Origin: Eubacteriales bacterium
GTDB lineage: Bacteria; Bacillota; Clostridia; Oscillospirales; CAG-272
NCBI GenBank assembly: GCA_045645205.1
Contig: JAZRIJ010000029.1
Location: 1-63,827 of the forward strand
Reading direction: 5' to 3'
DNA length: 63,827 nt
Shown: positions 996-56,834 of the stretch, piece by piece
Layout: every line of letters begins with the position of its first letter
Numbering within the stretch: position 1 is the stretch's first letter
Notes under the pieces: model-generated
The model's database searches: none
Told to the model about the DNA's origin: nothing
Seen by the model: only the letters and a program-made list of their open reading frames with translations
Program-made: the position numbers and the translations under genes

Positions 996-1151
996 AATGT
1001 TATCACCTCATAAAAAATATTTTGCTATTAAACTATTATATCAATTATTGTTCCTTATATCAAGAGTTTTTGAAAAAATATTACACAACAAACAATTCTG
1101 TTATACTCTTTGAATACAGTTGCAAAGAGCCAATATTGCACAAACAAAAAA

Positions 1152-1179
1152 TGTGCAGAAGGCAATACCCTTCTGCACA
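1152..1179 (-). terminator. Intrinsic terminator of the dehydrogenase operon
   Basis: TGTGCAGAAGG/CCTTCTGCACA 11-bp stem followed by a T-run on the minus strand. Confidence 0.75.
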
Positions 1180-1202
1180 AAGATTTATTTTGGTTTAATA
1201 AA

Positions 1203-3766: not shown

Positions 3767-5128
3767 TTATATCTGAAACAGGCCTTCGCGGATAACTTCA
3801 CAAACTGTGGGGTGTGGGAATACCATCTTGTGAACATCTTCAACACGCATTTCGTTTTCGACCATCATAGCCGCCCCATATATAATTTCGGATGCATAAG
3901 AGCCTATCATGTGAACACCAAGAATAGTGCGGTGTTTTTTGTCGATAATGATCTTAACAATACCGTCTCCGCCTTCGTTTTCAGCAATGTATCTGCCCGA
4001 GTAACGAAGGGTGAAGCTTTCTGTTTTTGTTTCAAGGCCCTTAGCTTTAACTGTTTCCGAAGTTTCGCCTACACTTGCAACCTCTGGGTTTGTATAGATA
4101 ACAGCAGGAATAGCGTTGTAGTTCATCTTATCTTTCTTGCCAAGAATATTATTTATGCAAACCTCGCCTTCACGGTATGCGGTATGAGCAAGCATGGATT
4201 TGCCGTTAATATCGCCTGCAGCCCAAACACCCGGAACGTTTGTCTTTCCGTCTTCACCTGTAACGATAGCGCCTCTTTCTGTAAGAACGCCAATGTTTTC
4301 AAGTCCGAGACCTACAGAGGAGGGTCTTCTTCCGATAGAAACGAGAACGCAGTCAGCCTTAACTGTCTTTGCCTCGCCTGCAAGCTCATAGTTTACGCAG
4401 TCGGTTCCGATAGATGTAACCTTTGCGGAGAGAATAAACTCAACGCCCTTCTTCTTGTAATTTTTAAGAAGAATAGAAGAGATTTCGCTGTCTGTAGGTC
4501 CTGCGATGTGGTCGAGCATTTCGATAACCTTAACGTTTGAACCGATGGAGTTGAAATAGCTTGCCATTTCAAGACCGATAACACCGCCGCCGATTACAAC
4601 AAGTTCTTTTGGAACGGTTGTCATATCAAGTATCTCGCGGTTTGTCTTTCCAAAACCGGAAGAAACAGCCTCTCTGAGACCGGGAATAGGAGGAACAGCA
4701 GCTTCAGAGCCTGCGCAGATAAGCAACTGTTTGCCTGTGTATTCTTTATCGCCGGCTTTTACAACAAAACCGCCAGCAGTCTTTTCTTTTATTTCTGCAA
4801 GTTCTTTTACAACCTCAACGCCCGCTCTTTTCATTGTGCCTTCAATACCTGAAACGAGAGTTTTTACGACCTTGCCCTTTCTTTCAATAACTTTTGCGTG
4901 GTCAATTGAGGCACCGTCAAACTTAACGCCGTAAGCTTCGCTGTGCTTTGCATAGTCATAGATCTTTGCTGAGTAAAGCAGTGTCTTTGTGGGAATACAA
5001 CCCTCGTTGAGACAAACTCCGCCCATCGCGCGTTTTTCAATAACAAGAGTCTTAAGACCGCCGTGTGCGGCTTTTTCGGCTGCATTATAACCTGCCGGTC
5101 CGCCGCCGATTACAATAAGATCGTACAT
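3767..5128 (-). CDS. lpdA: Dihydrolipoyl dehydrogenase (E3)
   Basis: GGGPAG, GGVCLNEGCIP redox disulfide, HPTxxE. Confidence 0.93.
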   Translation of the reverse strand: MYDLIVIGGGPAGYNAAEKAAHGGLKTLVIEKRAMGGVCLNEGCIPTKTLLYSAKIYDYAKHSEAYGVKFDGASIDHAKVIERKGKVVKTLVSGIEGTMKRAGVEVVKELAEIKEKTAGGFVVKAGDKEYTGKQLLICAGSEAAVPPIPGLREAVSSGFGKTNREILDMTTVPKELVVIGGGVIGLEMASYFNSIGSNVKVIEMLDHIAGPTDSEISSILLKNYKKKGVEFILSAKVTSIGTDCVNYELAGEAKTVKADCVLVSIGRRPSSVGLGLENIGVLTERGAIVTGEDGKTNVPGVWAAGDINGKSMLAHTAYREGEVCINNILGKKDKMNYNAIPAVIYTNPEVASVGETSETVKAKGLETKTESFTLRYSGRYIAENEGGDGIVKIIIDKKHRTILGVHMIGSYASEIIYGAAMMVENEMRVEDVHKMVFPHPTVCEVIREGLFQI

Positions 5129-5159
5129 TTATATTTTCTTCCTTTCTTAAACCGATAGC

Positions 5160-6473
5160 TTATTTAGCCATAAGGAGATTAAAGTTTTCAAGGTTGGTGC
5201 AGAGTTCTTTCAAAAACCTTGCGGCAGGAGCGCCGTCGAGAGCTCTGTGGTCGAATGTAAGAGAAAGTCCCATTGCATTATAGAATACATCTTGACCGTT
5301 AACTTCCTTTACGCGGCGTGTGATGTTACAAACACCGAGGATACAGGTCTGAGGGGGATTGATAACGGGAGTGAAGCTTTCAACGCCCATAGCTCCGAGA
5401 TTGGTAACGGTGAACGTACCGCCGGAGAGAAGGTCGGGGCTAATAGAGCCTCCCTGAGCCGCCTTAATAACGGTCTTTGCGTTTACGGAAAGTTCGTTGA
5501 GGCTCATCTTGTCAGCGTTGAATACTGTGGGAACGAGGAGACCTCTTTCGGTGTCAACGGCGATGCCGAGGTTAACATTGTTGAAATATCTCATCTTGTC
5601 GCCGAGGAAGTGAGCGTTGCAGTCTTTGTGGCTTTTCAATGTTTTTGCAACTGCAAAGAGAACCATATCGTTGAATGTAATATTGTTAAGACCCATAGAC
5701 TCTGCGTTCTTCTTAAGAAGCGCGCGGTATTCTATAAGCTGTGTTGCATCGAAAGACGCGTTGAGTGTAAGCTGTGCCATGGAAGAGAGTGATTCGTGCA
5801 TTGACTTTGCAATAACTTTTCTGACATTGGAGAGCTTAACGTCTTCGTATTCAGCAATTGGAGCTACAGCGGCAGAGGGAGCCTGTACGGGAACTTCTTC
5901 AGTTGCCGCAGTAGGAGCAACACCTGTTTTTATAAATGTTTCATACTGTTCGGGAGTAAGTCTCTGACCGTTGTCAAGCAGTCTGTTTACATCTCTTTCG
6001 ATAATTCTTCCGTTAGGACCTGTTGGGGTAGCCTGTGAAAGATCGGCGTATGTTTTGTTTGCAAGGTTTTTTGCGCGGGGAGAGATTTTCATTGCTCCGT
6101 CCTTGTCGGCGCTTGCCGTTACAATAACAACTTCCTCTTTCTTAGCTTCCTCTTTCTTTTCTTCTGTGGGAGTGGATACTTCTGCAGGAGCTTGTTCAGC
6201 GTTTGCTTTAGGCATAAGGGTGCTTATATCTTCGCCTGCCTGACCTATAATACATACAGGTTCAAGGCAGGGAACATCGTCGCCTTCCTCTGCAAATACT
6301 TCAAGAAGAGTACCCGAAACTGTTGCGGGTTCATCAAAAGATGACTTGTCTGTTTCATAGGAGAAGAGAACATCGCCTTCGGCAATGGCATCTCCTTTTT
6401 TCTTTTTCCATTCAGTAATGACGCAACTTTCGACAGACTGTCCTTGGCGCGGCATTATAACTAATGTTGCCAT
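5160..6473 (-). CDS. Dihydrolipoamide acyltransferase (E2) with one lipoyl domain
   Basis: ETDKS lipoyl Lys, TGPNGRI subunit-binding domain, DHRALDG; start moved to the ATG after a GGAGGT RBS. Confidence 0.9.
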   Translation of the reverse strand: MATLVIMPRQGQSVESCVITEWKKKKGDAIAEGDVLFSYETDKSSFDEPATVSGTLLEVFAEEGDDVPCLEPVCIIGQAGEDISTLMPKANAEQAPAEVSTPTEEKKEEAKKEEVVIVTASADKDGAMKISPRAKNLANKTYADLSQATPTGPNGRIIERDVNRLLDNGQRLTPEQYETFIKTGVAPTAATEEVPVQAPSAAVAPIAEYEDVKLSNVRKVIAKSMHESLSSMAQLTLNASFDATQLIEYRALLKKNAESMGLNNITFNDMVLFAVAKTLKSHKDCNAHFLGDKMRYFNNVNLGIAVDTERGLLVPTVFNADKMSLNELSVNAKTVIKAAQGGSISPDLLSGGTFTVTNLGAMGVESFTPVINPPQTCILGVCNITRRVKEVNGQDVFYNAMGLSLTFDHRALDGAPAARFLKELCTNLENFNLLMAK

Positions 6474-6500
6474 AAGTTTTACCTCCAAAAATTGTATATA

Positions 6501-7271
6501 TTAATTATATGCTCTGATTATGTTAACACCGTTTTGTTCTGCAATTAATGCAATATCTTCCGGAAGTTTACCGTTTGTAATAATAGAAGAAACACTCTTA
6601 AGGTCGCAGAAGGTGTAGGGAAGACTCTTGTCCAATTTTGATGTATCAAGAAGAACTATAATTTTTCTTGCTTTTTCAACAATAAGCTTTTTAAGTTCAC
6701 ACTCGCTGTAGTTGCCGCAGGTAAGACCGGTTTGCGCCGATGCACCCGATGGTACTATAAATGCAATATCTATATTTATGTCATCAAGAAATTGTAAAGC
6801 CTGTGTTCCCGAAACGGAAATGTTGTCTCTGTTTAGCATACCGCCTACAAGGTTAACGAGAGTCTGCTTTTTGTGAAGAAGCTCAAGGGCAATATTGGGG
6901 CCTGTTGTGGTAATTGTAAGTCTTTCTTCAGGGAGAAGGGATGCCATTTTTAACATAGTTGTACCAGAGTCAAGAAATATGGAACGTCCCGTTTCGAGCA
7001 ATTCAATAGCTTTATTTGCCAAAGCTTCTTTTGCGGGAACGTTTTTTTGCATACGTCTTGGAAACTCTTCTTCCATCGAGGTTGTAATAAATTTCATGGA
7101 TCGTGCGCCGCCTCTTACCTTTATAGCTTCACCTTGCTGTTCAAAGTAATCAATATCACGGCGGATAGTCATACTTGAAACATCGGGAAACAGTTCTATA
7201 AGTTCCTTTAAAGAAACAAATGGTTTCGAATGAAGCAGCTCCTTAACTATTCTTCTTCTTTCGGAATTCAT
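6501..7271 (-). CDS. DeoR/GlpR family transcriptional regulator
   Basis: VSxMTIRRD helix-turn-helix, IFLDSGTT sensor domain. Confidence 0.9.
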   Translation of the reverse strand: MNSERRRIVKELLHSKPFVSLKELIELFPDVSSMTIRRDIDYFEQQGEAIKVRGGARSMKFITTSMEEEFPRRMQKNVPAKEALANKAIELLETGRSIFLDSGTTMLKMASLLPEERLTITTTGPNIALELLHKKQTLVNLVGGMLNRDNISVSGTQALQFLDDINIDIAFIVPSGASAQTGLTCGNYSECELKKLIVEKARKIIVLLDTSKLDKSLPYTFCDLKSVSSIITNGKLPEDIALIAEQNGVNIIRAYN

Positions 7272-7669
7272 AAAATGGATTCTCCTTGTTTTTTTAATAA
7301 TAATTGATTAAAATTACACACATTATGTTATATTTAACATTAAATCAATATAATTATAGTATGTTATTATCACAATGTCAACAATTTTATTATTAAATTA
7401 CGTATTATTACAACTAAATTATTGCACAATCGCAATTTGTATTATTTAGGTGTAAAAAATCACATTTGTCTAACAGTTGTATTGTGTACTATAAAATTAA
7501 AAAGTAAAATAATATTCATTTAATTATAACATATTATTTGTAATTATTTAAGTGTTTTGGTAAAAAAGTCATTGTAATTTATACAAAAATTTTAGCTTAG
7601 AATTTGTGCAAACTGTAATATAAAACACTGTCGTACATATTAATACGGCAGTGTCGTTAATTGTATTTT

Positions 7670-9685
7670 TTAAGTTGCGTTATTTTGAGTTGCCGGAGGT
7701 TCAGTTTGTAGCGGTTCTGTTGCCGGAGGCTCGGTCCGAGGAGGATCGGTCACCTCAGGTTCGGGACCGTTGCTTACATAAATCGTAATCATAGTGCCCT
7801 CTTCCGAGTCTTTACTGGGAGTTACTTGAACATTGTATGCAGGTCCTGTCTTAAATACATAACCTGCGCGCTGGGTTGAATTATATTCTGTAATTGTTGT
7901 ATAACGAAGATTGAGTCTGTCAAGATCTGCTCTTACAGAGTCTATATGCTGTCCGACATAGTTTGGAAGAGCTATTGTTTTGGGACCTTCTGTTTCAGCA
8001 GGACCTTTGCTTGCTATAATGTGAATATCGGTACCTGTTGGGAGCTCAATGCCCTCTTCGCTGCTTTGTTCGAGTATCTCACCCTTAGGTTTGTTGGAAT
8101 CCTGATAGGTAATGTTGCCTAAACTCAGCTGATTGCTTTCGAGCAGTTTTTTTGCGTCATCAAGAGTTTTGCCTATAAGATTGGGCATCTTTACCATTTT
8201 AAGATCCGGTCCGTCGCTAACGTACAGTTTAATAACCGTATCCTTGGATACTATTGTTCCCGGTGCAGGCTCGGTTCTTATAACCATACCTTCGGAAATA
8301 AGATCGTGCTTTTCAAATTTAACGGTTGTTTTGAGACCTATCTTTTCTGCCTTTATCTCTACAGTTCTGTAATCTGTCATAGTATAATTGGGCAGTTCAA
8401 GAGTCATAGCGTTTTCGTCTCTGCATATTGTCAGTGTAAGATCGCACTTCTGCTTACCTTCAATAATAATTCTTTTTGAATCCTTAACAGGTTTTTGTTT
8501 TACTATTGTGTAAGGCGCATAATCCTTGTTGTCTGTATAGTCGATAATAACATTGTAGCCTTGCGCTTCAAGCTCTTCTTTCATTTCTTCGCTATAAATC
8601 TGATTAATGAAGTCGGGGACAATAATCTCTTTTCTTGTTGAAGGATCATCCTTAAATAAATTTGTTATAATAGAGATAAGAGAAATCGCCAATATAATAA
8701 TAAAAGCAATACTTATTCCGGCAATAACCGGAAGCATAGAACTGTTCTGTCTCTTTCCCTTAGGTTTTTTTCTTTTCAACTTTGCCAAAACTCCTTTTAT
8801 GCCTGTGGGGGCAGGAATGGCTGACATTTTCTTGTTGCTGAATATATACGTGGGATTGGCAAGCATTTGTTCAACGTGTTTGCGCATAACAGTAGCTGTC
8901 TGGAAACGTTTATCTGCATTTTTTTCCATAGCGGTCAGAATTATCTGTTCAACACCCACAGCAAGTCTCGGAACTTTTTCTCTTGGATTCTTCGGTTGTT
9001 CATTTATCTGTTTCAATGCAACGGATACGGGAGTGTCTGCCTTAAAGGGCAAATCGCCTGTCAACATCTCATACATAACTATACCCAACGAATAAAGGTC
9101 GCTTCTGGGATCAATGGTCTTTCCGCTTGCCTGCTCGGGACTGATGTAATAAACAGTTCCGATAGCCTTGTCCGCAACGGTGACGGTTTCCGCATTTGGA
9201 AGCTTGGCTATGCCAAAGTCGGTAACTTTTATTACACCGTTTTTCAAAAGCATAATATTCTGAGGTTTAATATCACGGTGGATAATTCCCTTAGAATGCG
9301 CGTGTTCAAGAGCTTTCAGTATTTGCTGTGTGTACACGAGAGCTTCACGGGTGCTTAATGCGCCCTTTATTGTAATGTAATTCTTCAGTGTAATACCCTC
9401 GACTCTTTCCATAACAATGTATTTTAGATCGCCCTTTATGGAAATATCGTAAATTGATACAATGTTAGGGTGTGATAACATAGATATAGCTTTGGATTCA
9501 TTTATAAATCTTTTAACTGATTGAGGGTCTTTCGCAATATCATCCTTGAGTACCTTCAATGCAACAACGCGCTTCATAGCAAGGTCTAATGCTTCAAATA
9601 CAATAGCCATACCGCCCTTGCCAATTACTTTTACTATTTTATATCTATTGTCGAGAACATTCCCGATATATTTTTCAAGTTCCAT
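7670..9685 (-). CDS. prkC: PASTA-domain Ser/Thr kinase (PrkC/Stk1)
   Basis: GKGGMA, HRDIKPQN, DFG, one TM helix, several PASTA repeats. Confidence 0.93.
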   Translation of the reverse strand: MELEKYIGNVLDNRYKIVKVIGKGGMAIVFEALDLAMKRVVALKVLKDDIAKDPQSVKRFINESKAISMLSHPNIVSIYDISIKGDLKYIVMERVEGITLKNYITIKGALSTREALVYTQQILKALEHAHSKGIIHRDIKPQNIMLLKNGVIKVTDFGIAKLPNAETVTVADKAIGTVYYISPEQASGKTIDPRSDLYSLGIVMYEMLTGDLPFKADTPVSVALKQINEQPKNPREKVPRLAVGVEQIILTAMEKNADKRFQTATVMRKHVEQMLANPTYIFSNKKMSAIPAPTGIKGVLAKLKRKKPKGKRQNSSMLPVIAGISIAFIIILAISLISIITNLFKDDPSTRKEIIVPDFINQIYSEEMKEELEAQGYNVIIDYTDNKDYAPYTIVKQKPVKDSKRIIIEGKQKCDLTLTICRDENAMTLELPNYTMTDYRTVEIKAEKIGLKTTVKFEKHDLISEGMVIRTEPAPGTIVSKDTVIKLYVSDGPDLKMVKMPNLIGKTLDDAKKLLESNQLSLGNITYQDSNKPKGEILEQSSEEGIELPTGTDIHIIASKGPAETEGPKTIALPNYVGQHIDSVRADLDRLNLRYTTITEYNSTQRAGYVFKTGPAYNVQVTPSKDSEEGTMITIYVSNGPEPEVTDPPRTEPPATEPLQTEPPATQNNAT

Positions 9686-9701
9686 TAAAACTCACCTCAT
9701 T

Positions 9702-10511
9702 TTACTCTTCCGTTTCTTCGGGGTGGTTATTTTCCGAAGCGGCAGAGTTAAGTTTTATTATCACGGTTGTAATATTGTCTCCCCCACCGTTTTTGTTTGC
9801 TCTGTCGATCAAAGCCGTGCACATGCTTTCAAGGTCTTTTCCTTCATTTATAATGCTATGTATCACGTTTTCCTCAACAAAGTTTGTGAGTCCGTCGGAA
9901 CACAGTAACAGATATTTTATTCCGTCTGTTGATAGGTCCTTAAAGAAAACATCGGGTTCGGTTTTCTTCTGTGTGCCTATAGCTTTTGTTATTATATTTT
10001 TGTGCGGATTTTTTGAAGCCTCTTCGGGAGTAAGCTGTCCTAAGTCTATAAGAGTTTGTACATAGGAATGGTCTCTTGTAAACTGTGTTATGCTTTCATT
10101 ATTAACAAAATACAGTCTGGAGTCGCCAATGTTTGTGACATAAAGCTTGTTGTCCACTATCAAAGCTGCAACAAGGGTAGTACCCATCCCTGACAAGTTT
10201 TTTTCCTTGGAAGCTTTTTTAAACACAGTTGTATTTGTTAAAGATACTGACTTTTTCAAAAGCTTTTCAATTTCAAGGCTTTCTCCGTTAAATTGCAATT
10301 GTTCTTCCTGTCTTATATCGGACAGTTTTTTCTTTACATGCTTGACAAAATCACGGCATGCCAAAGAGCTGGCAATGCTTCCGCCGTTGGCGCCTCCCAT
10401 TCCATCACATACAAGACATAAAATTGCATTGTCATATAGCTGTTCGGTTATAAAGCTGTCTTGATTTTCTTGACGTTTCATGCCTGTGTCGCTTTTTCCG
10501 AAAAACTGCAT
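9702..10511 (-). CDS. prpC: PP2C Ser/Thr phosphatase (PrpC/Stp1)
   Basis: RQENQD, DGMGG, GDSR, CSDGL, DNIT motifs; adjacent to the kinase. Confidence 0.92.
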   Translation of the reverse strand: MQFFGKSDTGMKRQENQDSFITEQLYDNAILCLVCDGMGGANGGSIASSLACRDFVKHVKKKLSDIRQEEQLQFNGESLEIEKLLKKSVSLTNTTVFKKASKEKNLSGMGTTLVAALIVDNKLYVTNIGDSRLYFVNNESITQFTRDHSYVQTLIDLGQLTPEEASKNPHKNIITKAIGTQKKTEPDVFFKDLSTDGIKYLLLCSDGLTNFVEENVIHSIINEGKDLESMCTALIDRANKNGGGDNITTVIIKLNSAASENNHPEETEE

Positions 10512-10663
10512 ATATTACCTCCGTTAAAATGAAAAAATGCTTAATATAAAATGTAAAAATACTTCTATAAATAATGTAATTGTTTTTATAAATTTACTTA
10601 TGTTTTGCGCAATTGTCCGCAAGTTACGCTTGGGTTTATTTATTTTCCAAAAAGAAATAAACT

Positions 10664-11701
10664 TTATAAATTCATTTCCGTTCTGCGTAATTGTCCGCAG
10701 GAAGCGTTTATATCACTGCCGAGCTTTCGGCGGATAGTGGCATTTACTCCTTTTTTTTCAAGATTTCCTTGAAACTGCAATACAGACTTGTTGCCGCTTG
10801 TAAAACCTGTACCTTCAACCGAATTCACGGGAATAAGATTAATATGAAACGGTATTCCGGGGAGTTTTGTGTTAAGAAGGTTAGCCAGTGCGTTTGCCTG
10901 AACAGCATTGTCATTTACGCCAGAAATGACCGCATACTCAAAAGATATTCGTCTTCCTGTTTTTTCGAAGAATACCTTGCAGGCTGTGAGCAAAGCATCT
11001 ATATTCCATTTTTTATTTATAGGCATAAGAGCCGAGCGGTCGGTGTCGTTTGAGTGGTGAAGCGATATTGACAAAGTAACCGGTAGGCCTTCCTCAGCCA
11101 AAGAATATATTTTGTCAACCACACCGCAGGTAGAAAGCGATATGTGGCGCAGACCTATGTTTAATCCATCGTCAAGGCTGACGAGATGAAGAAATTTTAT
11201 AACATTGTCATAATTATCAAGCGGTTCTCCGATGCCCATAAGGACAATGTTCGATATTCGAAGCCCAGTATCTTTTTGAGCAACAAGTACTTGGCCGAGC
11301 ATTTCCGATGGGGTAAGATTTCTTGCCCAACCGTTTTGAGTAGAGGCGCAAAACTTGCATCCCATCTTACAGCCGGCTTGACTTGATATACATATTGTAT
11401 TCCCGTGTTTGTATTTCATGACAACACTCTCAATACATTGCCAGTCGTAAAGCTTAAAAAGGTATTTAACCGTACCGTCAATTTTAGATACATATTTTTT
11501 TAAAATTTCGGGCAAAGCAATGTATGTTGCTTCATTCAAGGTATCGCGCATTTTTTTTGGAAGGTTTGTCATTTCATCAAAGTTTGCTCCCTTGTGAAGC
11601 CAACCAAAAAGCTGTTTTACTCTGTATTTAGGCTCGTTTTCAAGAAGTTTTACAAGTTCCTCGGGGAAAAGGCTCAATATATCTGTCTTTTGATTTTTCA
11701 T
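10664..11701 (-). CDS. rlmN: 23S rRNA m2A2503 methyltransferase RlmN (radical SAM)
   Basis: CKMGCKFC, MGIGEP, ASCGQL. Confidence 0.93.
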   Translation of the reverse strand: MKNQKTDILSLFPEELVKLLENEPKYRVKQLFGWLHKGANFDEMTNLPKKMRDTLNEATYIALPEILKKYVSKIDGTVKYLFKLYDWQCIESVVMKYKHGNTICISSQAGCKMGCKFCASTQNGWARNLTPSEMLGQVLVAQKDTGLRISNIVLMGIGEPLDNYDNVIKFLHLVSLDDGLNIGLRHISLSTCGVVDKIYSLAEEGLPVTLSISLHHSNDTDRSALMPINKKWNIDALLTACKVFFEKTGRRISFEYAVISGVNDNAVQANALANLLNTKLPGIPFHINLIPVNSVEGTGFTSGNKSVLQFQGNLEKKGVNATIRRKLGSDINASCGQLRRTEMNL

Positions 11702-49187: not shown

Positions 49188-50315
49188 TTATTTTATATCA
49201 ATATCGATACCGTTGACCTCGACACCGCCCTCGGCGCGTATCATGATATATTTTATGCCGTTTATCGTCTGGGTGGAAACAAGGTCTTTTTTTTCGGGAT
49301 TAACTTTTATGGTAACGTCAGGCGTTTCAAGTTCAAATTTTTTAATATCAACAATGCTTTTTGGAGAAATTTCTGCGTTCTTGCCAAACTGTTCATCAAA
49401 CCTTGTGCCGAAGTCTTCGATTTTTTCCTCACCTATACCGCAATATTGCAGAACGGTTTTAAGTGTATCCTTTGAAAGAGAAAAAGGTTCATCATCATTT
49501 GAGTTTTTGTGTTCTTCGATAAGTTCGGCAACCTGATCGTGTACGGTTTTTACTACCTCAAAATCACATTCTCCTGTAAGTGTATCTTTCAGACAGCTTC
49601 CGAAATTCTCTTTTTGTTCCGCTACCGACATAGGAAGGTCTACATTAAACATATTTTGTATAAAGTCGGGGTAAACATTTGAAATATCGTGGGTGTAGTA
49701 AAGAGCGCTGTAGATATTTGCCGCTCTGTTGTCAAAGGCGGGGAACATAAAGCCAAGCTCGGCAGCGCCGAGAACAGTTTGAAGAGATACTGAACGGAGA
49801 AGATTTTCATCATTCTTGAAGTAAAGTCCTGTGGTGAGAGGCTTTATGGGGCAAATACTGCATATTATGTAGGAGAACATCTGGGACGAAGCATCGTCTT
49901 TGTTTCCGCTTTTGGAATATGTAAAAACATCATAAGTGTCATAGGCTATAAGTATTGCAAAACCGCCGTCAAATTTGACGCTGTCTATAACCTTTGTATA
50001 AAAATTATTTAACGCTTCTTCGTCTTTAAGACCCGAAGATCGCAAAGTTGAAAGAAGTCCGTGTTCATCACTGCTTTCAACCTGTTTTGTGCTGAAATTG
50101 AGGGTGAGAAGATTCGTTCCCAGCGAGCCGGAAATAGACCTTTTCATTATAGCAAGAAGTTTTTCAGATTCTTCTGTAGATATTGTCGCCAATGGTTGTG
50201 AAAAGCGGGAAACAATATTTTTTTGTGAATTAACTATACAGCCTTGTATATTTGTAATATTATTTTTATCGGGGCGGAATCGCCTGCGTATTTCACGTAA
50301 ATCTTTATCTGTCAT
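49188..50315 (-). CDS. DUF4317 family protein
   Basis: EIRRRF, YIICSICP, GFMFPAF, VEVNGI motifs typical of the family (recalled, not searched). Confidence 0.75.
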   Translation of the reverse strand: MTDKDLREIRRRFRPDKNNITNIQGCIVNSQKNIVSRFSQPLATISTEESEKLLAIMKRSISGSLGTNLLTLNFSTKQVESSDEHGLLSTLRSSGLKDEEALNNFYTKVIDSVKFDGGFAILIAYDTYDVFTYSKSGNKDDASSQMFSYIICSICPIKPLTTGLYFKNDENLLRSVSLQTVLGAAELGFMFPAFDNRAANIYSALYYTHDISNVYPDFIQNMFNVDLPMSVAEQKENFGSCLKDTLTGECDFEVVKTVHDQVAELIEEHKNSNDDEPFSLSKDTLKTVLQYCGIGEEKIEDFGTRFDEQFGKNAEISPKSIVDIKKFELETPDVTIKVNPEKKDLVSTQTINGIKYIMIRAEGGVEVNGIDIDIK

Positions 50316-50580
50316 AATTATTCTCCCGAAATTTTAAGTAATTTATTATAACATTATTCGACATTGAAAACAATAGCAATATTTAAAAATATAAATTATT
50401 ATTTTTTGGGGGATATACGAAAAAAATAAATGGAGCTTTTGAAAAAAGCTCCATCTTAAATTTGTAACAAATTACATTTTTGAAATGTTTAACTTCCGAG
50501 GTGCTATAAAAAACTACCATAGATTTTTTTATCGGTCTATGGTAGTTTTTATATTCAACCGTAATATTTCTATTAAAAAT

Positions 50581-51419
50581 TTATACAGTGAATTTGTAAT
50601 CTTTTATAAGATTTGTTTCTACTCCGTCATTGCCTGAGGTGAGTACATACAGATTAAATGTATATTCTTTTCCTCTTATAAAACATATGTCTCCAAGATC
50701 AAGCTTTGTCAAGTCATATTCTCTCAAGTGATAATTTGTAGGTGTTCTCAAATTTGCCATAACTACATTGCCGGGACAATCGTATGTCTTTTCTCCGTCA
50801 TCTATAACAGCTCTTACTGAGATAATCTGTCTGTTTGATTTAACCCAACCAAAGAATACTACGTCTGCAAATCTAAAGCTGCTTACATATGTATCTTCTT
50901 CAACATATGCGCCTTCCTGGGTAAGTTCAGAAATTGAAATAGGAAGAGAACCTTCTGCTACAAGGTGATTAAAATTATATTGCACTTCGTGGAAAGAGGA
51001 TTTGTTTTCTTCTTTGATAAAACGGTTAGATGAACCGCCCGCCTGGTCAAGAATAGTGATATAGCTCTTTTCCATATCATATACTTGTTCACCGTTCTCA
51101 TCGATGGTAAATTCAACATGAGGCACATCGATTACAAGACGTACATGACGTCCGTTTCCGTCGGTTTTTCTGATATATGTAACAGCATCGCCGGGCTTAA
51201 GCTGTGAATATGCTTTAGCCATTACCTGCGGACCGTTAACTCTGGTCATTTCCTGTGTATTGTCATCATAAGTGTTTGAATAATCATATTCGCCAACGGC
51301 TACAACACCAGTATTCTTGCCGGGGTTAAAACAAATAAATGTCTCTTTGGGTGTCCATTCAATAGTCGCCATTTTTTCATATAGTCAACGACTTTTTGGC
51401 GAAGTGCTTGTTCGTTCAT
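50581..51419 (-). pseudogene. Hypothetical protein with a frameshift near its 5' end
   Basis: AAAGGAG RBS and ATG at 51419 (MNEQALRQKVVDYMK) are out of frame with the 263-aa ORF across an A6 run at 51372-51377. Confidence 0.55.
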
Positions 51420-51751
51420 CTTTTTTTATCTCCTTTAAAAAGATATTTTATACTCTAACTATTTTACTTTATTATATTGGGGTTTGTCAATGAAATCATA
51501 GATAACCTATCCTTTTTGGGCGTGTTTTGTTTCAAAATGCTCTATTAGGAAATGTTGCTTAAATTAAAAACAACAGCTTTTTAAAAATTATTAATAAACA
51601 TTATCCTCATTTTTATAATTGTACCATACCGTAAATGAGTTTGTCAACACTACTTTTTGATGAGTATGTTGTTTTTATGAAAAAATTTTGACTAAAAACA
51701 GCATATTTTTGACCTATACATAGCAAAAAGCGAAGTGAATTTCACTCCGCT

Positions 51752-52438
51752 TTATATATTTCCGTATGAGTTATTTGTAAGACTTGTTTTGCCGAAAAAG
51801 TTTTCATTTGGGAAATGCGTTTCTCGCCATTTCGGGTTATATTTATCTGTATACTTCGAAAAGCTCCACGCTTTTTCGCTTACAGAGCCTTTGCTCATAT
51901 GCATTCTTTGAGCAAAATTATAACTTGCATAGTATACAACAAAGAATGACAGCGTATCTGCAAACTGATTATAATCATCTAACAGATAAAGTTTGTGAGT
52001 GTATTTATAATCATTGACCGAAAGATAAGTTTCTATCAAAGCAATTTGCATAGTGCCTTGGTAAATTGAAACATAGTTAAATGAGCCACGCGACAAACAA
52101 TAGCAGTGAAAGATTTCTCCGTTATCCAAAGCAATAACATAAAAACTTTTAAGAAAACCGTGTTTTGAAAATACAATACTTCCGTACATGTTGTCGTTTT
52201 TATAAAGGTGGAAAACTCTTGTTAGGTTTGCTTCACCAAACAAATAACGCAACGGTATATAGTTAACCCATTTGGAAATATTGTAAACACCTTTAATTGT
52301 GTTTTCATTATTGGAAAGTTTTATAGATTGCAAACGGCTGATACTACCTGCATCACCGCTATAATAAAAATTATCGCCCTCAATATCGTAGGATTGTTTA
52401 ATGTTAGATGCAGTTTGGGAAATTTTAATAATCATCAA
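51752..52438 (-). CDS. Hypothetical cargo protein, beta-rich, possibly LURP/tubby-like
   Basis: 228-aa ORF with RBS, its own TTTACT-N17-TATAAT promoter and a terminator. Confidence 0.7.
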   Translation of the reverse strand: MMIIKISQTASNIKQSYDIEGDNFYYSGDAGSISRLQSIKLSNNENTIKGVYNISKWVNYIPLRYLFGEANLTRVFHLYKNDNMYGSIVFSKHGFLKSFYVIALDNGEIFHCYCLSRGSFNYVSIYQGTMQIALIETYLSVNDYKYTHKLYLLDDYNQFADTLSFFVVYYASYNFAQRMHMSKGSVSEKAWSFSKYTDKYNPKWRETHFPNENFFGKTSLTNNSYGNI

Positions 52439-52547
52439 ATCACCGCCTTTAAATTATTATAACACAACCACTCTAAAAAGTAAATCTCGGCAGTATAAAT
52501 CTCCTCAAAATACAGATAATAACAACACAATTTGAAAATTTTGTGAT

Positions 52548-52620
52548 GTAGGGCGGTGCCTTGGTGCCGCCGCCAAAACTCGTACAAAACGAAAACGGCG
52601 GGAGCAAGCCCCCGCCCTAC
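52548..52620. repeat. GTAG-type REP doublet (REPIN-like)
   Basis: GTAGGGCGG...CCGCCCTAC inverted ends, each half with its own hairpin; absent from the otherwise matching copy at 54719-54785. Confidence 0.7.
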
Positions 52621-52650
52621 GATATATTTGTAATAAGGAGAAGTGTATAT

Positions 52651-52725
52651 ATGAAAGCAACAGGAATTGTTCGTAGAATAGAGGGATGCGTTATAATAGG
52701 GCAAAAGTTGAGTAAGGCCTTATAA
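52651..52725 (+). pseudogene. Orphan spoVT 5' fragment (MKATGIVRRI) fused to 14 unrelated codons
   Basis: First 10 aa identical to SpoVT, with 3 synonymous codon differences; same promoter and RBS. Confidence 0.85.
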
Positions 52726-52833
52726 ACACCGGGTTTTTGGACGATTTGTAAAGAAAAAATTTTGACAAAAAAACAGCGTATTTTGACCTATACATATCAA
52801 AAGCGAGGGGATCCACCTCGCTTTTTAATGTTA

Positions 52834-54651
52834 TTATTCCTGTAGGTCGCGCTTAATGAGATTTTCAATATGCATCTTGAGTGAAGCATAAGCGGCAGGA
52901 TGATACTTCATTTTCATAACCTTGGAAATCTTATAGCACATAGAAGTGTATGACATACTTCCGTATATACGTATCTTTTTAATGTACTTTACATTACTTA
53001 ACATTCTTATTGCGTGCTGAGCAACTTTAACAATGGTTGTAAGTAAAATTATGCTCGCAAACATAATAGAAACAAGCGAAGAAATATTTTCAAACGAAAA
53101 AGTAATTGATTTAATGCTTATAAAGGCAACACAAAGAAGCAAAATGGATTCAGCAAAATCCTTGCTTTGCAGTATTCTTTGAAGAAAACTAATAATTCCA
53201 CCAAAAAAACTATGAAGCCTGTTTTTATAATATTTTATGACGATGGCCGCAAAATTTTTGTTTTCAAAAGCCTCGCTGGCCTTTCTGTATCGGTTTTTGA
53301 TTTCTTCAAGCGATTCATCAATCTCATTCTCAAAAAGAACATTGAAATGACATCGCCTGTTTGAAGGACTGCCCTGTGATAATTGAGGAAGATTGCCCGA
53401 TATTATCATTCCATGGCAAGACCACGATTCCTTTGTGGAAATCATATTAAGTTCACCATAAGCCTCGCGTGCAATTTCACCCAACAAATCGCTTCGCTTT
53501 TGATTAATATAGACGGTCGGTAGGTCTTCATAAACCGAGTTGTTATAGAATTGAACGTCCTCGTCATAAACCTCGGCATTTCCGTTGACACTTGGATAAA
53601 GAGCACCGCCGTCTATATTTTTAGCAGCGCGTAAGCCGAAAAGAATTTCTTTTTTGGAAGTTTTGATATTGCTGGAAACCCCAATTTGATTTACGTTGTA
53701 ACTGCACTTAATATATTCGTTGATATGGGTAAGGATTTGCTCGTCATCAACATCTTTTACAGAAAGTTCCTCAAACAAACGCATTTTGCAGCAGTCGTCA
53801 TAACTGAAAAATTTTTCAAGATTTTGGCGGCTCTCTTTAAGCAATGGATGACTTATATAATTATCGTCAAATGCGCAAACCGTTGCAAAAGTACTGCGCT
53901 CATATGTAAGCTGATAGTTGGATATTCCGTTGTTTTCAAAATTGTATTTCTGCTTATTAATTTCGAGTGGCTTTAACAAAACACCCGAATAAAACACCCT
54001 TCCAACCAGCAGTTTTATATTTGATTTATTCGCATAAATATCCGAAAAACCGATGCCCCGATCACTTATTTGCCAAACACCGTTCTTATTGACAAATTGG
54101 TATTCCTTTAACCGTTCAATCAAATCAAGGCATGGGCATCCGTGCAGAAGGAGGGTGCCTGCTGCACGATTATGGGAAATTACCGCAGAAAAATCGCTGT
54201 CAATGTCGGATAGGAAGTTTAGTTCAGCGCAATCCTTGAACTCCACTCCATATTTTGAAGCAAGAGTGAGCAAAATCAGTTTTGCAACGTCCAATAAGCA
54301 TTCTGCCTGGTCCTCGTGGAGCATAAATTCGGAACAGTGTTCGGAAATAAACGAATTAAGGCCTTTGGTGGATTTGAAGGAAAGAGCAGATATGGCGTCT
54401 ATTATAGAAAAACTGTCGATTCTCGGGGAAACACCGTAATAAAAATCAGAAAAATCCTCTTTGTAGCCAAAGGTTAAATCCTCGTTAAGAACAGCGTATC
54501 GCGAAAAAAATTGCTCGGGCTTATGGTTCAGTGTGAAGGATATTTTCTTATGTGAAAGAATAATCGCTTTGCAAAAATTAAGTGCCTGCTTTGAAACGTC
54601 TTCCTGCATGGTGTCGTTAAATTTTGAAATTGAAAAATCGTTAAGTTTCAT
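52834..54651 (-). CDS. Hypothetical cargo protein with a Nudix-like region and two C-terminal TM helices
   Basis: GVSSNIKT...FGLR...SVNGNAE...REAYGEL resembles a divergent Nudix fold; two hydrophobic helices follow. Confidence 0.65.
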   Translation of the reverse strand: MKLNDFSISKFNDTMQEDVSKQALNFCKAIILSHKKISFTLNHKPEQFFSRYAVLNEDLTFGYKEDFSDFYYGVSPRIDSFSIIDAISALSFKSTKGLNSFISEHCSEFMLHEDQAECLLDVAKLILLTLASKYGVEFKDCAELNFLSDIDSDFSAVISHNRAAGTLLLHGCPCLDLIERLKEYQFVNKNGVWQISDRGIGFSDIYANKSNIKLLVGRVFYSGVLLKPLEINKQKYNFENNGISNYQLTYERSTFATVCAFDDNYISHPLLKESRQNLEKFFSYDDCCKMRLFEELSVKDVDDEQILTHINEYIKCSYNVNQIGVSSNIKTSKKEILFGLRAAKNIDGGALYPSVNGNAEVYDEDVQFYNNSVYEDLPTVYINQKRSDLLGEIAREAYGELNMISTKESWSCHGMIISGNLPQLSQGSPSNRRCHFNVLFENEIDESLEEIKNRYRKASEAFENKNFAAIVIKYYKNRLHSFFGGIISFLQRILQSKDFAESILLLCVAFISIKSITFSFENISSLVSIMFASIILLTTIVKVAQHAIRMLSNVKYIKKIRIYGSMSYTSMCYKISKVMKMKYHPAAYASLKMHIENLIKRDLQE

Positions 54652-54721
54652 TTTTTGTACCTCGTTACAACAAGTATTGTTTTCATTATATCAAACTGTT
54701 ATCAAAAAGTAAATTCCCGCA

Positions 54722-54750
54722 GTATAAATCTCCTCAAAATACAGATAATA
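54722..54750 (+). promoter_or_regulatory. Forespore sigma-G/F-type promoter of spoVT (identical copy at 52493-52521)
   Basis: GTATA-N17-GATAATA versus the sigma-G consensus GHATA-N17/18-CATAHTA. Confidence 0.6.
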
Positions 54751-54785
54751 ACAACACAATTTGTAATTTAAGGAGAAATGTATAT

Positions 54786-55337
54786 ATGAAAGCAACAGGA
54801 ATAGTTAGAAGAATTGACGACCTCGGTCGTGTGGTAATTCCGAAAGAGATAAGAAGAACAATGAGAATTCGTGAGGGCGATCCGTTAGAGATTTATACAG
54901 ACAGAGAGGGCGAGGTTATCTTCAAGAAATATTCGCCTATTGGGGAGTTGACAAATTTTTCTGCACAGTATGCAGAAACATTGCATAAGGTTTGTGAGCT
55001 GTCTGTTGTAATAACCGACAGAGATACTGTTATTGCTGTATCTGGTCTGCCCAAAAAAGAATATATGGACAAGAGAATATCTTCCGAACTTGAAAATATT
55101 ATTGAAAATCGTTCAATATATATTTACACCCCCGGAGAGCAAAAAATACTTGCCACAAACGATGGCAGAGACAGCCACTTTGTAAGCTGCGCTATGCCTA
55201 TCATAACTGAGGGCGACATTATAGGTTGTGTTGTATCCATGTTACCCATGGAAGCTGACAAAAATGAAAAAAGCGAGGTAGAAACCAAGCTTGTTCAAAC
55301 TGCCGCAAACTTTTTGAGCAAACAGTTGGAAAATTAA
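54786..55337 (+). CDS. spoVT: Stage V sporulation protein T (AbrB domain plus GAF domain)
   Basis: MKATGIVRRIDDLGRVVIPKEIRRTMRIREGDPLEI, KKYSPIGEL. Confidence 0.96.
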   Translation: MKATGIVRRIDDLGRVVIPKEIRRTMRIREGDPLEIYTDREGEVIFKKYSPIGELTNFSAQYAETLHKVCELSVVITDRDTVIAVSGLPKKEYMDKRISSELENIIENRSIYIYTPGEQKILATNDGRDSHFVSCAMPIITEGDIIGCVVSMLPMEADKNEKSEVETKLVQTAANFLSKQLEN

Positions 55338-55382
55338 AAAATGGCTGTGTATAGGTTTTTTGTAACCCTTACACAGCTATTT

Positions 55383-56834
55383 TTATTTTCTTTTCCAAAA
55401 TACAGGGGTAAATACAAGCAAAATCGGATATATTTCCAATCTTCCGAGGAGCATTGCTATCGACAATACTATCTTGGAGAAGCTCGAATACGCCGCAAAA
55501 TTTGCAGTGGGACCTACATTTGCGAGTCCGGGACCAACATTGTTGAAACAGGCGGCTGCTGCCGTAAAATTTGTTTCAAAGTCAAATGCTTCGCCGGATT
55601 CCAAGGAAAGCAATAGTACAATTACAAAAAACAGAATAAAGAATACTGTAAAATAGACACTGACTCCGTTTATTGTTTGGTTGTCAATAGCTTTTCCTTC
55701 AAATTTTACACTTCCGACAGAGCGGGGATGGAGCATACGTTTTATATCTCTAAAAATGGTTTTCACGGCAATAATAATTCTTGATACTTTAATACCGCCG
55801 CTGGTAGAACCTGCGCATCCGCCGATAAACATAAGCAAAACAAGTATCATTTTTGAAAGAGTGGGCCACAGGTTAAAGTCAGTTGTTGCGTAACCCGTTG
55901 TAGTTATTATTGATGATACCTGAAAAAATGCACTTCTGACTGTTTCGGAAACACTGTCATACATATGGTGGATATTTGTTGATATAAGAACTGTTGCTGT
56001 TGCAATAATACCTATATATACCCAAAGCTCTGTACTTTTCAAGGCTGCGCGAAATCTTTTAATAAGTATAAGATAATACAGATTGAAGTTTATTCCGAAA
56101 ATTATCATAAATATTGCGATGACCCATTGCAAATATGCATTGTATCCTGCAATGCTGTCATTTTTTATACCAAATCCACCTGTCCCGGCAGTACCAAAAG
56201 CATGTAAAATACTGTCAAAAAGGGGCATACCGCCCAAGAGAAGCAATACTATTTCAACGAAAGTAATTACTATGTAAATGATGTATAGAAGTTTTGCGGT
56301 ATCACGTATCTTCGGTACAAGCTTTCCGACAATAGGTCCGGGCATTTCTGCTCTCATAATGTGAATAGATCTTCCCGACTCTTGAGGGAAAATTGCCATA
56401 ACAAATACCAGAACACCCATACCGCCGACCCAGTGTGTAAAACTTCGCCAAAAGAGCAATCCGCGGCTCATTTGTTCAATCTCATTTAAAATAGATGCAC
56501 CTGTTGTTGTAAAACCGCTTACGGTCTCAAAGAAAGCATCTATATATGAGGGTGTTTCTCTGCTTATGTAAAAGGGAAGAGCGCCTACAAGGGACAGGCA
56601 TATCCATGCCAATGCAACTATGGCAAAACCCTCTTTTGCAAAAATCATTTTGTCATTTTTGCCAAAAAGATTCGTAAGTATTATGCCGGCAGCCAGTGCA
56701 ATCAAAGCTGAAATAGCAAAAGATATTGCACATTTTTCGCGGTAGATAATGCTTGTTATCAGAGGAAGTACAAACAGTAAGGCTTCGATCTGAAGAATGC
56801 GTCCTACCATATATGAAACAATTTTGTGATTCAT
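55383..56834 (-). CDS. trkH: Trk potassium uptake membrane protein
   Basis: SGFTTTG, GTGGF, TTTGY, NNVGPG pore loops. Confidence 0.93.
   Translation of the reverse strand: MNHKIVSYMVGRILQIEALLFVLPLITSIIYREKCAISFAISALIALAAGIILTNLFGKNDKMIFAKEGFAIVALAWICLSLVGALPFYISRETPSYIDAFFETVSGFTTTGASILNEIEQMSRGLLFWRSFTHWVGGMGVLVFVMAIFPQESGRSIHIMRAEMPGPIVGKLVPKIRDTAKLLYIIYIVITFVEIVLLLLGGMPLFDSILHAFGTAGTGGFGIKNDSIAGYNAYLQWVIAIFMIIFGINFNLYYLILIKRFRAALKSTELWVYIGIIATATVLISTNIHHMYDSVSETVRSAFFQVSSIITTTGYATTDFNLWPTLSKMILVLLMFIGGCAGSTSGGIKVSRIIIAVKTIFRDIKRMLHPRSVGSVKFEGKAIDNQTINGVSVYFTVFFILFFVIVLLLSLESGEAFDFETNFTAAAACFNNVGPGLANVGPTANFAAYSSFSKIVLSIAMLLGRLEIYPILLVFTPVFWKRK

Follow-up and report, generated by a model that had tools for sequence, protein, structure and literature searches.

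Gene cassettes and a conserved linker at the 5' end of spoVT in uncultured Clostridia

Related systems and the spoVT locus

In streptococci, integrative elements and cis-mobilisable elements (CIMEs) stack by accretion at one attachment site, as tandem units with target-end repeats, many of them without a recombinase, and the target stays intact through the end that is supplied. Staphylococcal cassette chromosome (SCC) and pseudo-SCC islands, moved by Ccr large serine recombinases, hold stacked cargo between repeated sites at the end of a conserved gene, rlmH (orfX), and many of their blocks also lack a recombinase. In Neisseria, minimal mobile elements are exchanged as cassettes by homologous recombination between conserved flanks; varied whole-gene cassettes occupy one slot, carry no mobility genes and have scattered tract ends. 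Integrons and clusters of attC sites lacking integron-integrases (CALINs) contain mostly small cassettes at a fixed site, with hairpin repeats and no recombinase in the array. The locus described here lies at the 5' end of spoVT on a 63.8-kb contig (JAZRIJ010000029.1) of the metagenome-assembled genome (MAG) GCA_045645205.1 (Eubacteriales bacterium). The window that was analysed is this entire contig of 63,827 nucleotides (nt), and upstream of its intact spoVT two cargo genes are set between repeated pieces of the spoVT promoter and start and copies of a conserved linker.

With a probability of about 0.55, the locus is read here as an accretion array at an insertion hotspot in the spoVT 5' end, later shuffled by homologous recombination. 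Unlike CIMEs, it has as its target the 5' end of a gene for a regulatory protein, its units each supply a promoter, a ribosome-binding site (RBS) and start codons and go down to one gene (0.8-1.2 kb), and no cognate integrase element was found at codon 10. The likeness to SCC extends to a large serine recombinase tied to the same gene (codon 32-34); unlike in SCC, this enzyme splits spoVT, was not found in the window's genus and does not have its crossover at codon 10. The turnover of cassettes is like that of minimal mobile elements; in comparison with these, the left flank here is a spread linker of ~400 nt that lets arrays grow, and exchange crosses families. The unusual features here are a regulator 5' end as the target, a promoter replaced at each event, very compact units, and a linker that has itself spread across families and has related arms at tRNA-Pro and guaA.

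Sporulation genes are known to be interrupted by intervening elements, among them skin, SPbeta, gin in gerE and yin in yabG (PMC5595907, PMC10747680); the available portions of these gin and yin papers contain 0 occurrences of spoVT. A comparable recombinase element interrupts spoVT in genomes G024 and G022 and in record MT836658, and only there; unlike in these, spoVT of the window is whole. A further difference lies in germ-line loss: spoVT is a forespore gene, at least in Bacillus according to the available portion of PMC5061766, and excision would remove the element from the germ line. A full-text literature search, supplements aside, gave no paper in which spoVT serves as a site of attachment or insertion.

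The array in the window, its linker and its relatives

The preliminary description of the window had proposed two tandem units of one layout in front of spoVT, and all the elements that it listed were found again by repeat comparison and folding. The spoVT promoter block is present twice, and its identity of 45 of 45 nt (52490-52534 against 54719-54763) was confirmed; these 45 nt are the longest identical run within a wider repeat (52475-52540 against 54704-54769) of 92% identity over 66 nt, and copy 1 is also 100% identical over 44 nt to the spoVT promoter of G009. The orphan start (52634-52682) and the real start (54769-54817) are 90% identical over 49 nt. As had been stated, the orphan ATG at 52651 encodes MKATGIVRRI, with codons 6, 8 and 10 differing from the real gene by 4 nt, all synonymous, and the homology stops within codon 11 (GAG against GAC). 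The common layout is repeated, but on its left unit 1 retains only a decayed linker and has no orphan start. The left-end block with its hairpin is likewise there (51679-51728 against 52753-52802, 90% identity over 51 nt) but makes up no more than the 3' half of an element of ~150 nt, which starts at the codon-10 junction; the hairpins after the left blocks (51679-51753 and 52753-52826) are unlike in sequence and fold at -11.9 and -15.0 kcal/mol (z about -5). The succession of promoter, RBS and codons 1-10 was also seen, except that a 94-nt palindrome parts the orphan promoter from its RBS. This insertion (52541-52633) is found neither in promoter copy 2 nor in the G037 homologue, folds at -42.3 kcal/mol (z -5.25), and has arms of 25-28 nt that recur on contigs C58, C4, C83, C11 and C78 of the same genome, mostly as inverted pairs. 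The promoter and left blocks match only one another across the 1.75-Mb assembly and are thus not a genome-wide repeat family. Each unit is bordered by direct repeats derived from the end of spoVT, and spoVT itself is kept intact.

The linker follows codon 10 in a fixed order. Its first arm contains a TGn-TATAAT-like box; next come an inner hairpin, whose loop hardly varies, and a second arm that is the complement of the first. TTTTGAC direct repeats and a terminator hairpin complete the linker, and this terminator serves the convergent cargo gene as well. The arms form a 23-nt inverted repeat around the conserved inner hairpin. Among 158 distinct copies collected in all, two helix variants with compensatory changes were seen, with G-T wobbles on the top strand, and mixed pairs of the two arm variants were common. 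To the right of the cargo the conserved parts are the -35 of the cargo promoter, the spoVT promoter, the RBS and the start; the TTTACT-N17-TATAAT layout in front of cargo gene 1 was seen too in G009, G010, G414 and G037. Since both sides of the cargo are conserved, cargo slots are parted by a conserved linker of ~400 nt. In the window copy the second arm of the long hairpin has been lost. Orphan starts elsewhere were often disabled, by ATA or ATT in place of ATG in G003 and G011, or by small GC-rich insertions in codons 3-6 in G010, G135 (twice), G288, G395 and G181.

Rfam gave nothing above chance in the window at 50300-55400 and no family in eight full linkers, and RNAalifold returned no consensus structure for a mixed alignment of 31 sequences. 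By eye, the TATACATA segment contained no convincing match to the consensus of a dif/Xer-like site. Integron attC sites consist of paired R''-L'' and L'-R' boxes with a GTTRRRY core; in 31 aligned linkers, compared by eye, the GTTATAA of the first arm does not fit this core. Pairing of the conserved loop with a target was considered and set aside: its 10-nt complement occurs 5 times in its own genome against ~3 expected, with no pattern.

Five genomes of the same genus contain spoVT with 87-91% protein identity and conserved downstream genes, and in every one the left side of spoVT is unlike the others and again carries orphan spoVT starts. The left flank is not a constant host gene; the recurring left border is the linker, and the right flank spoVT-trkH-trkA is conserved. 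The orphans fall into two classes. Class A is cut after codon 10 and followed by the conserved sequence (one in the window, two in G011, one in G002); class B is cut at codon 34 and followed by another conserved tail (G003, G011, G010, and other contigs of G009 and G003). Three orphans precede the real spoVT in G011. The cargo comprises a Phd-like gene and an 857-amino-acid (aa) N6_Mtase/Eco57I/HSDR_N enzyme in G002, Fic, a PASTA protein, a GntP-type permease and a truncated MBOAT in G011, Acyl_transf_3 in G010, and small genes without a family in G003 and G009; no recombinase was found among the cargo of these five genomes. Different cassettes thus occupy one slot between recurring borders, without mobility genes.

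Among 11 genomes of the genus, 6 yielded no full spoVT, their sole match being of the AbrB type over 52 residues; two of these six are 97-99% complete, and one, G007, retains an orphan start and linker at a contig end. The window's genome has a second full linker (G000:C85, L229, ~4130-4400) on a 6.3-kb contig without spoVT, where a promoter-like block, RBS, ATG and nine spoVT codons are followed by the class A element between araD-like and MarR genes. A further junction, at codon 11-12, was seen in G036 (L242).

The distribution of the class A linker was determined with a pattern of the 25 nt after the junction (at most 2 mismatches), and the reversed pattern served as the control. Among 401 genomes sampled from the order, 32 from many families contained the pattern (reversed control, 0); the window linker fits it with 0 mismatches and aligns with 30 other copies. 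A scan of a larger collection for the exact pattern, with one genome per species, gave at least 119 stretches, all from MAGs of gut-type Clostridia, labelled Acutalibacteraceae, Oscillospiraceae, Faecousia, Ruminococcus, Candidatus Fimenecus, Ruminiclostridium, Clostridia, Eubacteriales and, once, Lachnospiraceae. Eighty of these stretches were read as loci, and a spoVT start precedes 79 of their 91 linker copies; nearly every copy read has this one junction. An intact spoVT on the same strand lies downstream in 12 of 19 loci of the order (at 0.8-8.6 kb), and a full one in 19 of the 80 collection loci (at 0.9-6.4 kb); most of the remaining loci end too early to tell. Arrays of 2-3 class A copies were found in G135, G418, G300 and G181 (4 of 19 order loci), and at least 2 copies in 10 of the 80 collection loci, one being the G181 record again; class B orphans are intermixed in class A arrays.

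Cargo genes of different genomes are unrelated; those of 34 arrays amount to 92 open reading frames (ORFs) with matches to 73 Pfam families, the most frequent being AraC (4), zinc ribbon (4), N6_Mtase (3) and Fic (3). Cargo lies on both strands (23 plus, 27 minus; n=50). The class A linker had no match in 50,697 phage records, and its sole match in 72,556 plasmids fell at the 5' end of a gene of the AbrB family. Neither the codon-10 nor the codon-34 pattern was matched in the 2.9 million viral contigs of IMG/VR (0 each). A phage or plasmid origin of the linker found no support in these searches.

Transfer of cassettes, recombinases and competing explanations

The stretch 51726-52540, which comprises the 228-aa cassette and its adjoining spoVT promoter, is 85.5% identical in nt to G037 and 86% to L162. 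The SpoVT proteins of the window and of G037, a member of another family, are 53.8% identical; the homology to G037 begins at the terminator hairpin of the older linker, at 51726. Similar cases are a 3.4-kb tract at 86% between G037 and G135, adjacent to spoVT in one and in mid-array in the other, a 1.4-kb tract at 90% between G244 and G386, and a 5-kb tract at 99.7% between L124 and L126 that in L124 runs to +29 of the real spoVT and in L126 stops at a different linker. The last encodes a LuxR-type regulator and zinc-ribbon proteins and no mobility gene; L124 is on a 159-kb contig and differs from L126 in both flanks. Three of the four contigs with this cassette, L126, L157 and L171, are short (3.5-5.3 kb) and come from the MAGs of one project, so that mis-binning may have inflated the count of "four species". 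Immediately upstream of the real ATG, 45 nt are 100% identical in the cross-family pairs G242/window, G010/G135 and G011/G135 and 98% in G002/G042, against 41-52% in codons 61-100 of the same pairs and 41-48% in the first three. Within the genus, G002 and the window have 53% identity in the 45-nt upstream stretch and 82-87% in the gene body. Identities of 85-100% between families in cassettes and in the spoVT promoter and 5' end, against ~50% in the spoVT bodies, show horizontal movement of both between families.

The ends of shared tracts were collected from 64 pairwise matches of at least 500 nt and at least 80% identity; matches between duplicates of one record (L101/L148, L099/L145, L089/L150) and those lying wholly in host flanks were dropped. 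With positions counted from the class A junction, left ends cluster at -96 to -24 or +98 to +180, and right ends lie at -300 to -100, -49, -10, +13 and +55; in this filtered set no tract ends at the codon-10 junction itself. Runs of identity end within the real spoVT at +20 (G242/window, G010/G135), +29 (G011/G135), near +40 (G002/G042, G414/window) and near codon 30 (a second G242/window tract). L124 has one arm variant where a copy with 99.7% identity over the rest of the tract has the other, which places a crossover inside the linker. The spread of tract ends fits general homologous recombination and lends no support to a single crossover at codons 10-11.

The inner hairpin motif was found in 24 of 151 genomes (control, 0) and in more than one setting: in spoVT linkers, directly after the guaA stop in either orientation, in some genomes right ahead of the spoVT RBS, and behind orphan 5' halves of tRNA-Pro(TGG). 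The break in these tRNA-Pro orphans falls in the anticodon loop, and the intact tRNA follows shortly downstream; contig C73 of the window's genome carries two of them, and others are present in G026, G069 and G070. They are followed by TTTGACC-type direct repeats in the order and spacing of the 'TTTTGAC..TTTTGACC' block of the window, the order common to alignment A7 being hairpin, ~25 nt, TTTTGAC repeats. In G066 and G041 the motif stands between the guaA stop and a mobilisable element with a tyrosine-type integrase (Arm-DNA-bind_4, Phage_int_SAM_3 and Phage_integrase domains) and Mob_Pre, NikA-like, AAA_25 and XRE genes. The ~90 nt after the guaA motif are nearly alike in G013 and G051, which are of different families, and the motif is therefore on the element side of the guaA junction. 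Because the hairpin and the TTTTGAC repeats recur at tRNA-Pro orphans and at guaA integrase elements, the linker may be regarded as the arm of a recombinase site. It would descend from an attachment-site arm of elements that replace the 5' part of their target, with the TTTTGAC repeats as candidate arm-type binding sites.

On contig C73 of the window's genome (L228, 2575-3205), two tRNA-Pro(TGG) orphan 5' halves with the motif and TTTGACC repeats were seen together with an intact tRNA-Pro (2955-3030) and an orphan tRNA 3' part (3178-3205). G069 and G070 have the same small tRNA-Pro unit of ~180 nt without cargo. At L124 (~800-880), L075, L236/L257 (G076) and L242 (G036) the motif is located 35 nt before the RBS of spoVT or of an orphan, where it takes the place of the usual promoter block and looks like a truncated linker joined to the next start.

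A recombinase linked to spoVT was found at the other junction. In G024 and G022 a large serine recombinase (750 and 725 aa; PHROG integrase 2.1e-85) reads in frame into SpoVT residues ~32-183, so that the break in spoVT comes at codon 32-34 and the attachment site of the recombinase falls within its own gene. Immediately ahead of the fusion lies the inverted repeat of the arm found behind class B orphans. Elsewhere in the same two genomes, codons 1-34 of spoVT are followed by the arm and by a short coding tail that looks like the C-terminal end of the recombinase itself. A third fusion is contained in MT836658, one of two records filed as 'Bacteriophage sp.' that the recombinase matched and really a fragment of a bacterial chromosome; the housekeeping-like genes after it are presumably recN, argR and an NAD kinase, names taken from the sequence starts alone. 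Relatives of the serine recombinase in 41 genomes, including those of the window's genus, had at most 32% identity apart from G022 (59%), and none was found in IMG/VR. To judge from these sequences, the codon-34 junction is attL and the work of the large serine recombinase, and the element that splits spoVT would be an intervening element in a forespore-expressed sporulation gene. Similarity of the class A linker to the codon-34 tails of G003 and G011 is confined to its 3' half and, within this, chiefly to the terminator hairpin (2 of 500 shuffles).

A linker with remnant spoVT codons was also seen away from spoVT, in G298:C56 (L095/L106/L107, oriented position 16085), beside DUF6557, a 456-aa tyrosine integrase, a D5-type primase and a family A DNA polymerase. 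By its gene content this island is of the satellite or integrative-plasmid type.

In the accretion and shuffling reading, the incoming DNA would have a working promoter, RBS and first spoVT codons at its proximal end and an attachment-derived linker with a bidirectional terminator at its distal end. Recombinase-bearing elements would have inserted in the spoVT 5' end and supplied a new promoter, RBS and start, so that the gene survived and the previous promoter and start were pushed upstream as an orphan fused to an element arm. The lack of recombinases and the disabled orphans suggest that these elements then decayed to cargo and linker. The tract ends, hybrid arms and perfect identities of 45-100 nt suggest that the linkers came to serve as portable homology, through which recombination after DNA uptake would swap or stack cargo; in stacking, the incoming orphan start would pair with the resident real start. 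Once spread, the ~400-nt linkers probably let cassettes exchange mostly by general homologous recombination. From left to right the window would then comprise an old linker stump, the 228-aa unit, a silenced orphan with a decaying linker, the 605-aa unit, and the live promoter and gene; its two units would be recombinase-less remnants or cassettes, with the middle orphan silenced by the palindromic insertion.

A number of results weigh against this reading. No recombinase-bearing element, of the kind that the preliminary description had suggested looking for, was found at the codon-10 junction. A recombinase was absent among the 25 most frequent of the 73 Pfam families of the 92 cargo ORFs, which take in all families with at least 2 cargo members, and among the best 25 of 27 families in 24 ORFs of six loci without nearby spoVT; phmmer searches with three large serine recombinases and one tyrosine integrase against the 92 ORFs gave 0 matches. 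Integration by the serine recombinase alone cannot yield codon-34 orphans upstream of an intact spoVT, and another step is therefore needed. The linker's first arm was also considered as a P arm for the serine recombinase, and this was rejected, as the alignment scores were reached by 22, 259 and 316 of 500 shuffles. The G298 tyrosine integrase was likewise rejected as the cognate enzyme, with homologues in 2 of 32 linker genomes against 57 of 369 others. As the motif lies in both orientations relative to guaA, it could act as a terminator or insulator of a general kind instead of being a recombinase arm. No circle or empty-site evidence was present in the contigs of four metagenome runs, though contigs miss rare forms. 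Lastly, no vehicle is known, the linker pattern being absent from the viral contigs.

The fate of the earlier proposals follows from these results. That units lack a recombinase was borne out for 40 arrays or loci by Pfam and phmmer, and the predicted variation of cassette number and cargo about a constant junction was seen across related genomes. Replacement of the spoVT promoter and 5' end was upheld as horizontal transfer by the identity upstream compared with the gene body. Integration around codons 10-11 was not: the junction is an inherited part of a widespread linker, and tract ends fall elsewhere. The newest cassette may lie next to the gene, as had been claimed, and this agrees with the decay gradient of the window. 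Compact units of one minus-strand gene are not the rule, as units are not always single-gene or minus-strand. The suggested resemblance to CIME accretion held, the nearest working likeness being accretion arrays of integrative elements and of their recombinase-less derivatives such as CIMEs and pseudo-SCC. The integron-like array is a cassette array at a fixed site but not an integron, because the cargo has its own promoters and lies in both orientations and the hairpin has no attC-like core; each unit here also duplicates a promoter and gene start, and the hosts are Clostridia, in which integrons are not expected.

Homologous recombination might also account for the locus by itself, and this is considered possible, if rather unlikely. 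One ancient fusion of orphan and linker would have been followed by RecA-type double crossovers after DNA uptake, like those of the Neisseria minimal mobile elements, with the linker and the spoVT 5' end as homology arms and no site-specific enzyme ever at the codon-10 junction. The absence of a recombinase from 40 arrays or loci, the scatter of tract ends away from the junction, the common hybrid arm combinations, and flanks with 45-100 nt of perfect identity between families all favour it; yet it leaves unexplained the hairpin and TTTTGAC repeats behind tRNA-Pro 5' halves and at guaA integrase junctions, as well as the recombinase-linked codon-34 class in the same arrays, and the left homology goes down to ~35-60 nt, while the cassettes are spread between families and reach 99.7% across filed species. 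A further reading, judged unlikely, is a family of integrases in gut Clostridia that recognises a shared arm of inner hairpin and TTTTGAC repeats with varied cores and captures recombinase-less cassettes into target 5' ends. Were it so, spoVT codon 10 and the tRNA-Pro anticodon loop would be its targets, each capture would replace the promoter and start of the target, and this would be an integron-like gene capture that also rewires the control of a master forespore regulator at each insertion. That an integron-like system is active today, with a recombinase in trans, from another part of the genome or from a visiting element, excising and capturing cassettes via the long imperfect hairpin of the linker, is quite improbable. 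The 23-nt inverted repeat with two compensatory helix variants among 158 copies, a similarity break between the two arms in two pairs with a shared cassette, and near-identical cassettes in unlike genomic contexts agree with such a system. No candidate enzyme co-occurs with the linker, however, the window copy lacks the second arm, the covariation of two helix variants may reflect only one or two events, RNAalifold gave no consensus on the mixed alignment, and the four metagenome runs contained no circle junctions, with the reservation made above for contigs.

The linker could be conserved as a functional gene, for a forespore small RNA or 20-residue peptide under a spoVT-type promoter or for a small RNA started at the TGnTATAAT box, with cargo accumulating between it and spoVT. 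Its conservation is indeed uneven, with little or no variation in the TATAAT-AGG-CAA stretch and the inner loop across 31 copies and the G-T wobbles on the top strand; an unrelated match to the pattern is an ordinary TTGACT-N17-TGn-TATAAT promoter, and SpoVT is under sigma-G in Bacillus subtilis according to the available portion of PMC5061766. A functional gene is nevertheless very improbable: the orphans are often disabled (ATA or ATT starts, GC-rich insertions, the 94-nt insertion of the window) and no Rfam family matches. A one-off local duplication or an assembly artefact, named in the preliminary description as what would refute it, is next to negligible. The source MAG is 84.6% complete in 89 contigs, no sequencing run contains the whole stretch (the best share of sampled words is 0.28), and the arrangement next to spoVT in the window is read from the MAG assembly alone; against this, the same layout and junction recur in many independent assemblies, the two window copies differ in sequence, and their cargo genes are unrelated.

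If accretion followed by shuffling is correct, the spoVT 5' end is a major and apparently undescribed site of gene exchange in uncultured gut Clostridia, across which restriction-modification, Fic, surface-modification and metabolic genes pass between families without a mobility gene in the block. Each event would swap the promoter and first codons of a key sporulation regulator, and gene flow would thus be coupled to sporulation control. The conserved linker offers a sequence handle for finding cassettes in metagenomes and possibly a landing pad for the engineering of bacteria that are hard to manipulate. With the serine recombinase element in spoVT, the sporulation genes known to be interrupted now include one of the forespore.

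Coordinates, cargo proteins and neighbouring genes

Table 1. Features of the array in the window and coordinates of related elements on other contigs (contig or locus given with the position)
Feature	Position	Strand	Remark
Decayed older linker without orphan start	51625..51760	+	alignment A7
Inner hairpin remnant of older linker	~51640-51662		
TTTTGAC repeats of older linker	51686-51692, 51707-51713		
Terminator hairpin of older linker	~51727-51751		
Cargo gene 1, 228 aa	51752..52438	-	ORF, no known family
Promoter-like site of cargo gene 1, TTTACT-N17-TATAAT	52455..52483	-	-10 52455-52460; -35 52478-52483
spoVT-type promoter block, copy 1	52475..52540	+	identical core 52490-52534
GC-rich palindromic insertion, 94 nt, like a miniature inverted-repeat transposable element (MITE)	52541..52633	.	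between orphan promoter and orphan RBS
Orphan RBS and spoVT codons 1-10	52634..52682	+	ATG at 52651
Class A linker, ~150 nt, somewhat decayed	52681..52830	+	starts right at codon-10 junction
TATAAT box of class A linker	52692-52697		
Inner hairpin motif of class A linker	~52715-52740		
TTTTGAC repeats of class A linker	52760-52766, 52781-52787		
Terminator hairpin of class A linker	~52799-52826		
Cargo gene 2, 605 aa	52834..54651	-	NUDIX-fold domain and C-terminal helices
Promoter-like site of cargo gene 2, TTTACT-N17-TATAAT	54685..54713	-	-10 54685-54690; -35 54708-54713
spoVT promoter block, copy 2, and RBS of real gene	54704..54785	+	
Intact spoVT, 183 aa	54786..55337	+	Pfam SpoVT_C 8.6e-42; MazE_antitoxin (AbrB-type) 7.8e-11
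MITE-like copies	C58:868-1070, C58:5833-5910, C4:2494-2696, C83:10037-10233, C11:9329-9522		
Recombinase-spoVT fusion genes	L034 (G024:C5) 5170-7422; L035 (G022:C8) 5284-7461; L104 (MT836658) 489-2591		
guaA 3'-end elements	L263 (G066:C1) 4934-11700; L264 (G041:C32) 4084-9700		

Neither cargo protein of the window belongs to a family in Pfam, PADLOC, NCBIfam or PHROGs, and a protein atlas returned hypothetical clusters only. Their homologues (157 for the 228-aa and 130 for the 605-aa protein) are all unnamed proteins of Clostridia MAGs. The 228-aa protein was modelled with AlphaFold2 (AF2) as a 12-strand barrel followed by a helix, at a predicted local distance difference test (pLDDT) score of 79.6. 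A fold search with this model gave no match at E <= 0.001; the best Protein Data Bank (PDB) lead had a probability of 0.77 and the atlas rows 0.90-0.91, and a Tubby/LURP-like fold is a weak lead. The AF2 model of the 605-aa protein (pLDDT 89.6) consists of a NUDIX-fold domain and then long C-terminal helices; human NUDT22 was nearest in the fold search (E 1.5e-6), with 7 PDB chains at E <= 0.001, and residues E392, R395, E396 and E400 are invariant in 31 aligned homologues. The 605-aa cassette (52769-54777) was covered at ~96-98% identity by contigs of 4 gut metagenome runs from three studies, in which cover was limited to this cassette and to the high-copy promoter and start segments. The uncovered flanks and the joints in these runs (side 23-46 nt, likeness threshold 88) were unusable as signs of excision or of an empty site.

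Downstream of spoVT, trkH- and trkA-like genes lie on the opposite strand in an order kept within the genus. At 42.6-51.4 kb the window encodes DUF4317, an RlmA-type methylase, an energy-coupling factor (ECF) riboflavin S component, a GntR regulator and an ATP-binding cassette (ABC) exporter; a family scan found no recombinase among the genes of 42.6-55.3 kb. Left of the array, a 263-aa gene at 50581-51372 (minus strand) has its own TTGACA-N18-TAAAAT site and no match in Pfam, PADLOC, NCBIfam or PHROG, and may be a still older cargo gene.

The palindromic insertion belongs to a MITE-like family with GC-rich terminal inverted repeats of ~25 nt that flank a core of ~150 nt; the window copy is a short, arms-only form. 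Comparable small GC-rich insertions break the orphan spoVT starts of other genomes.

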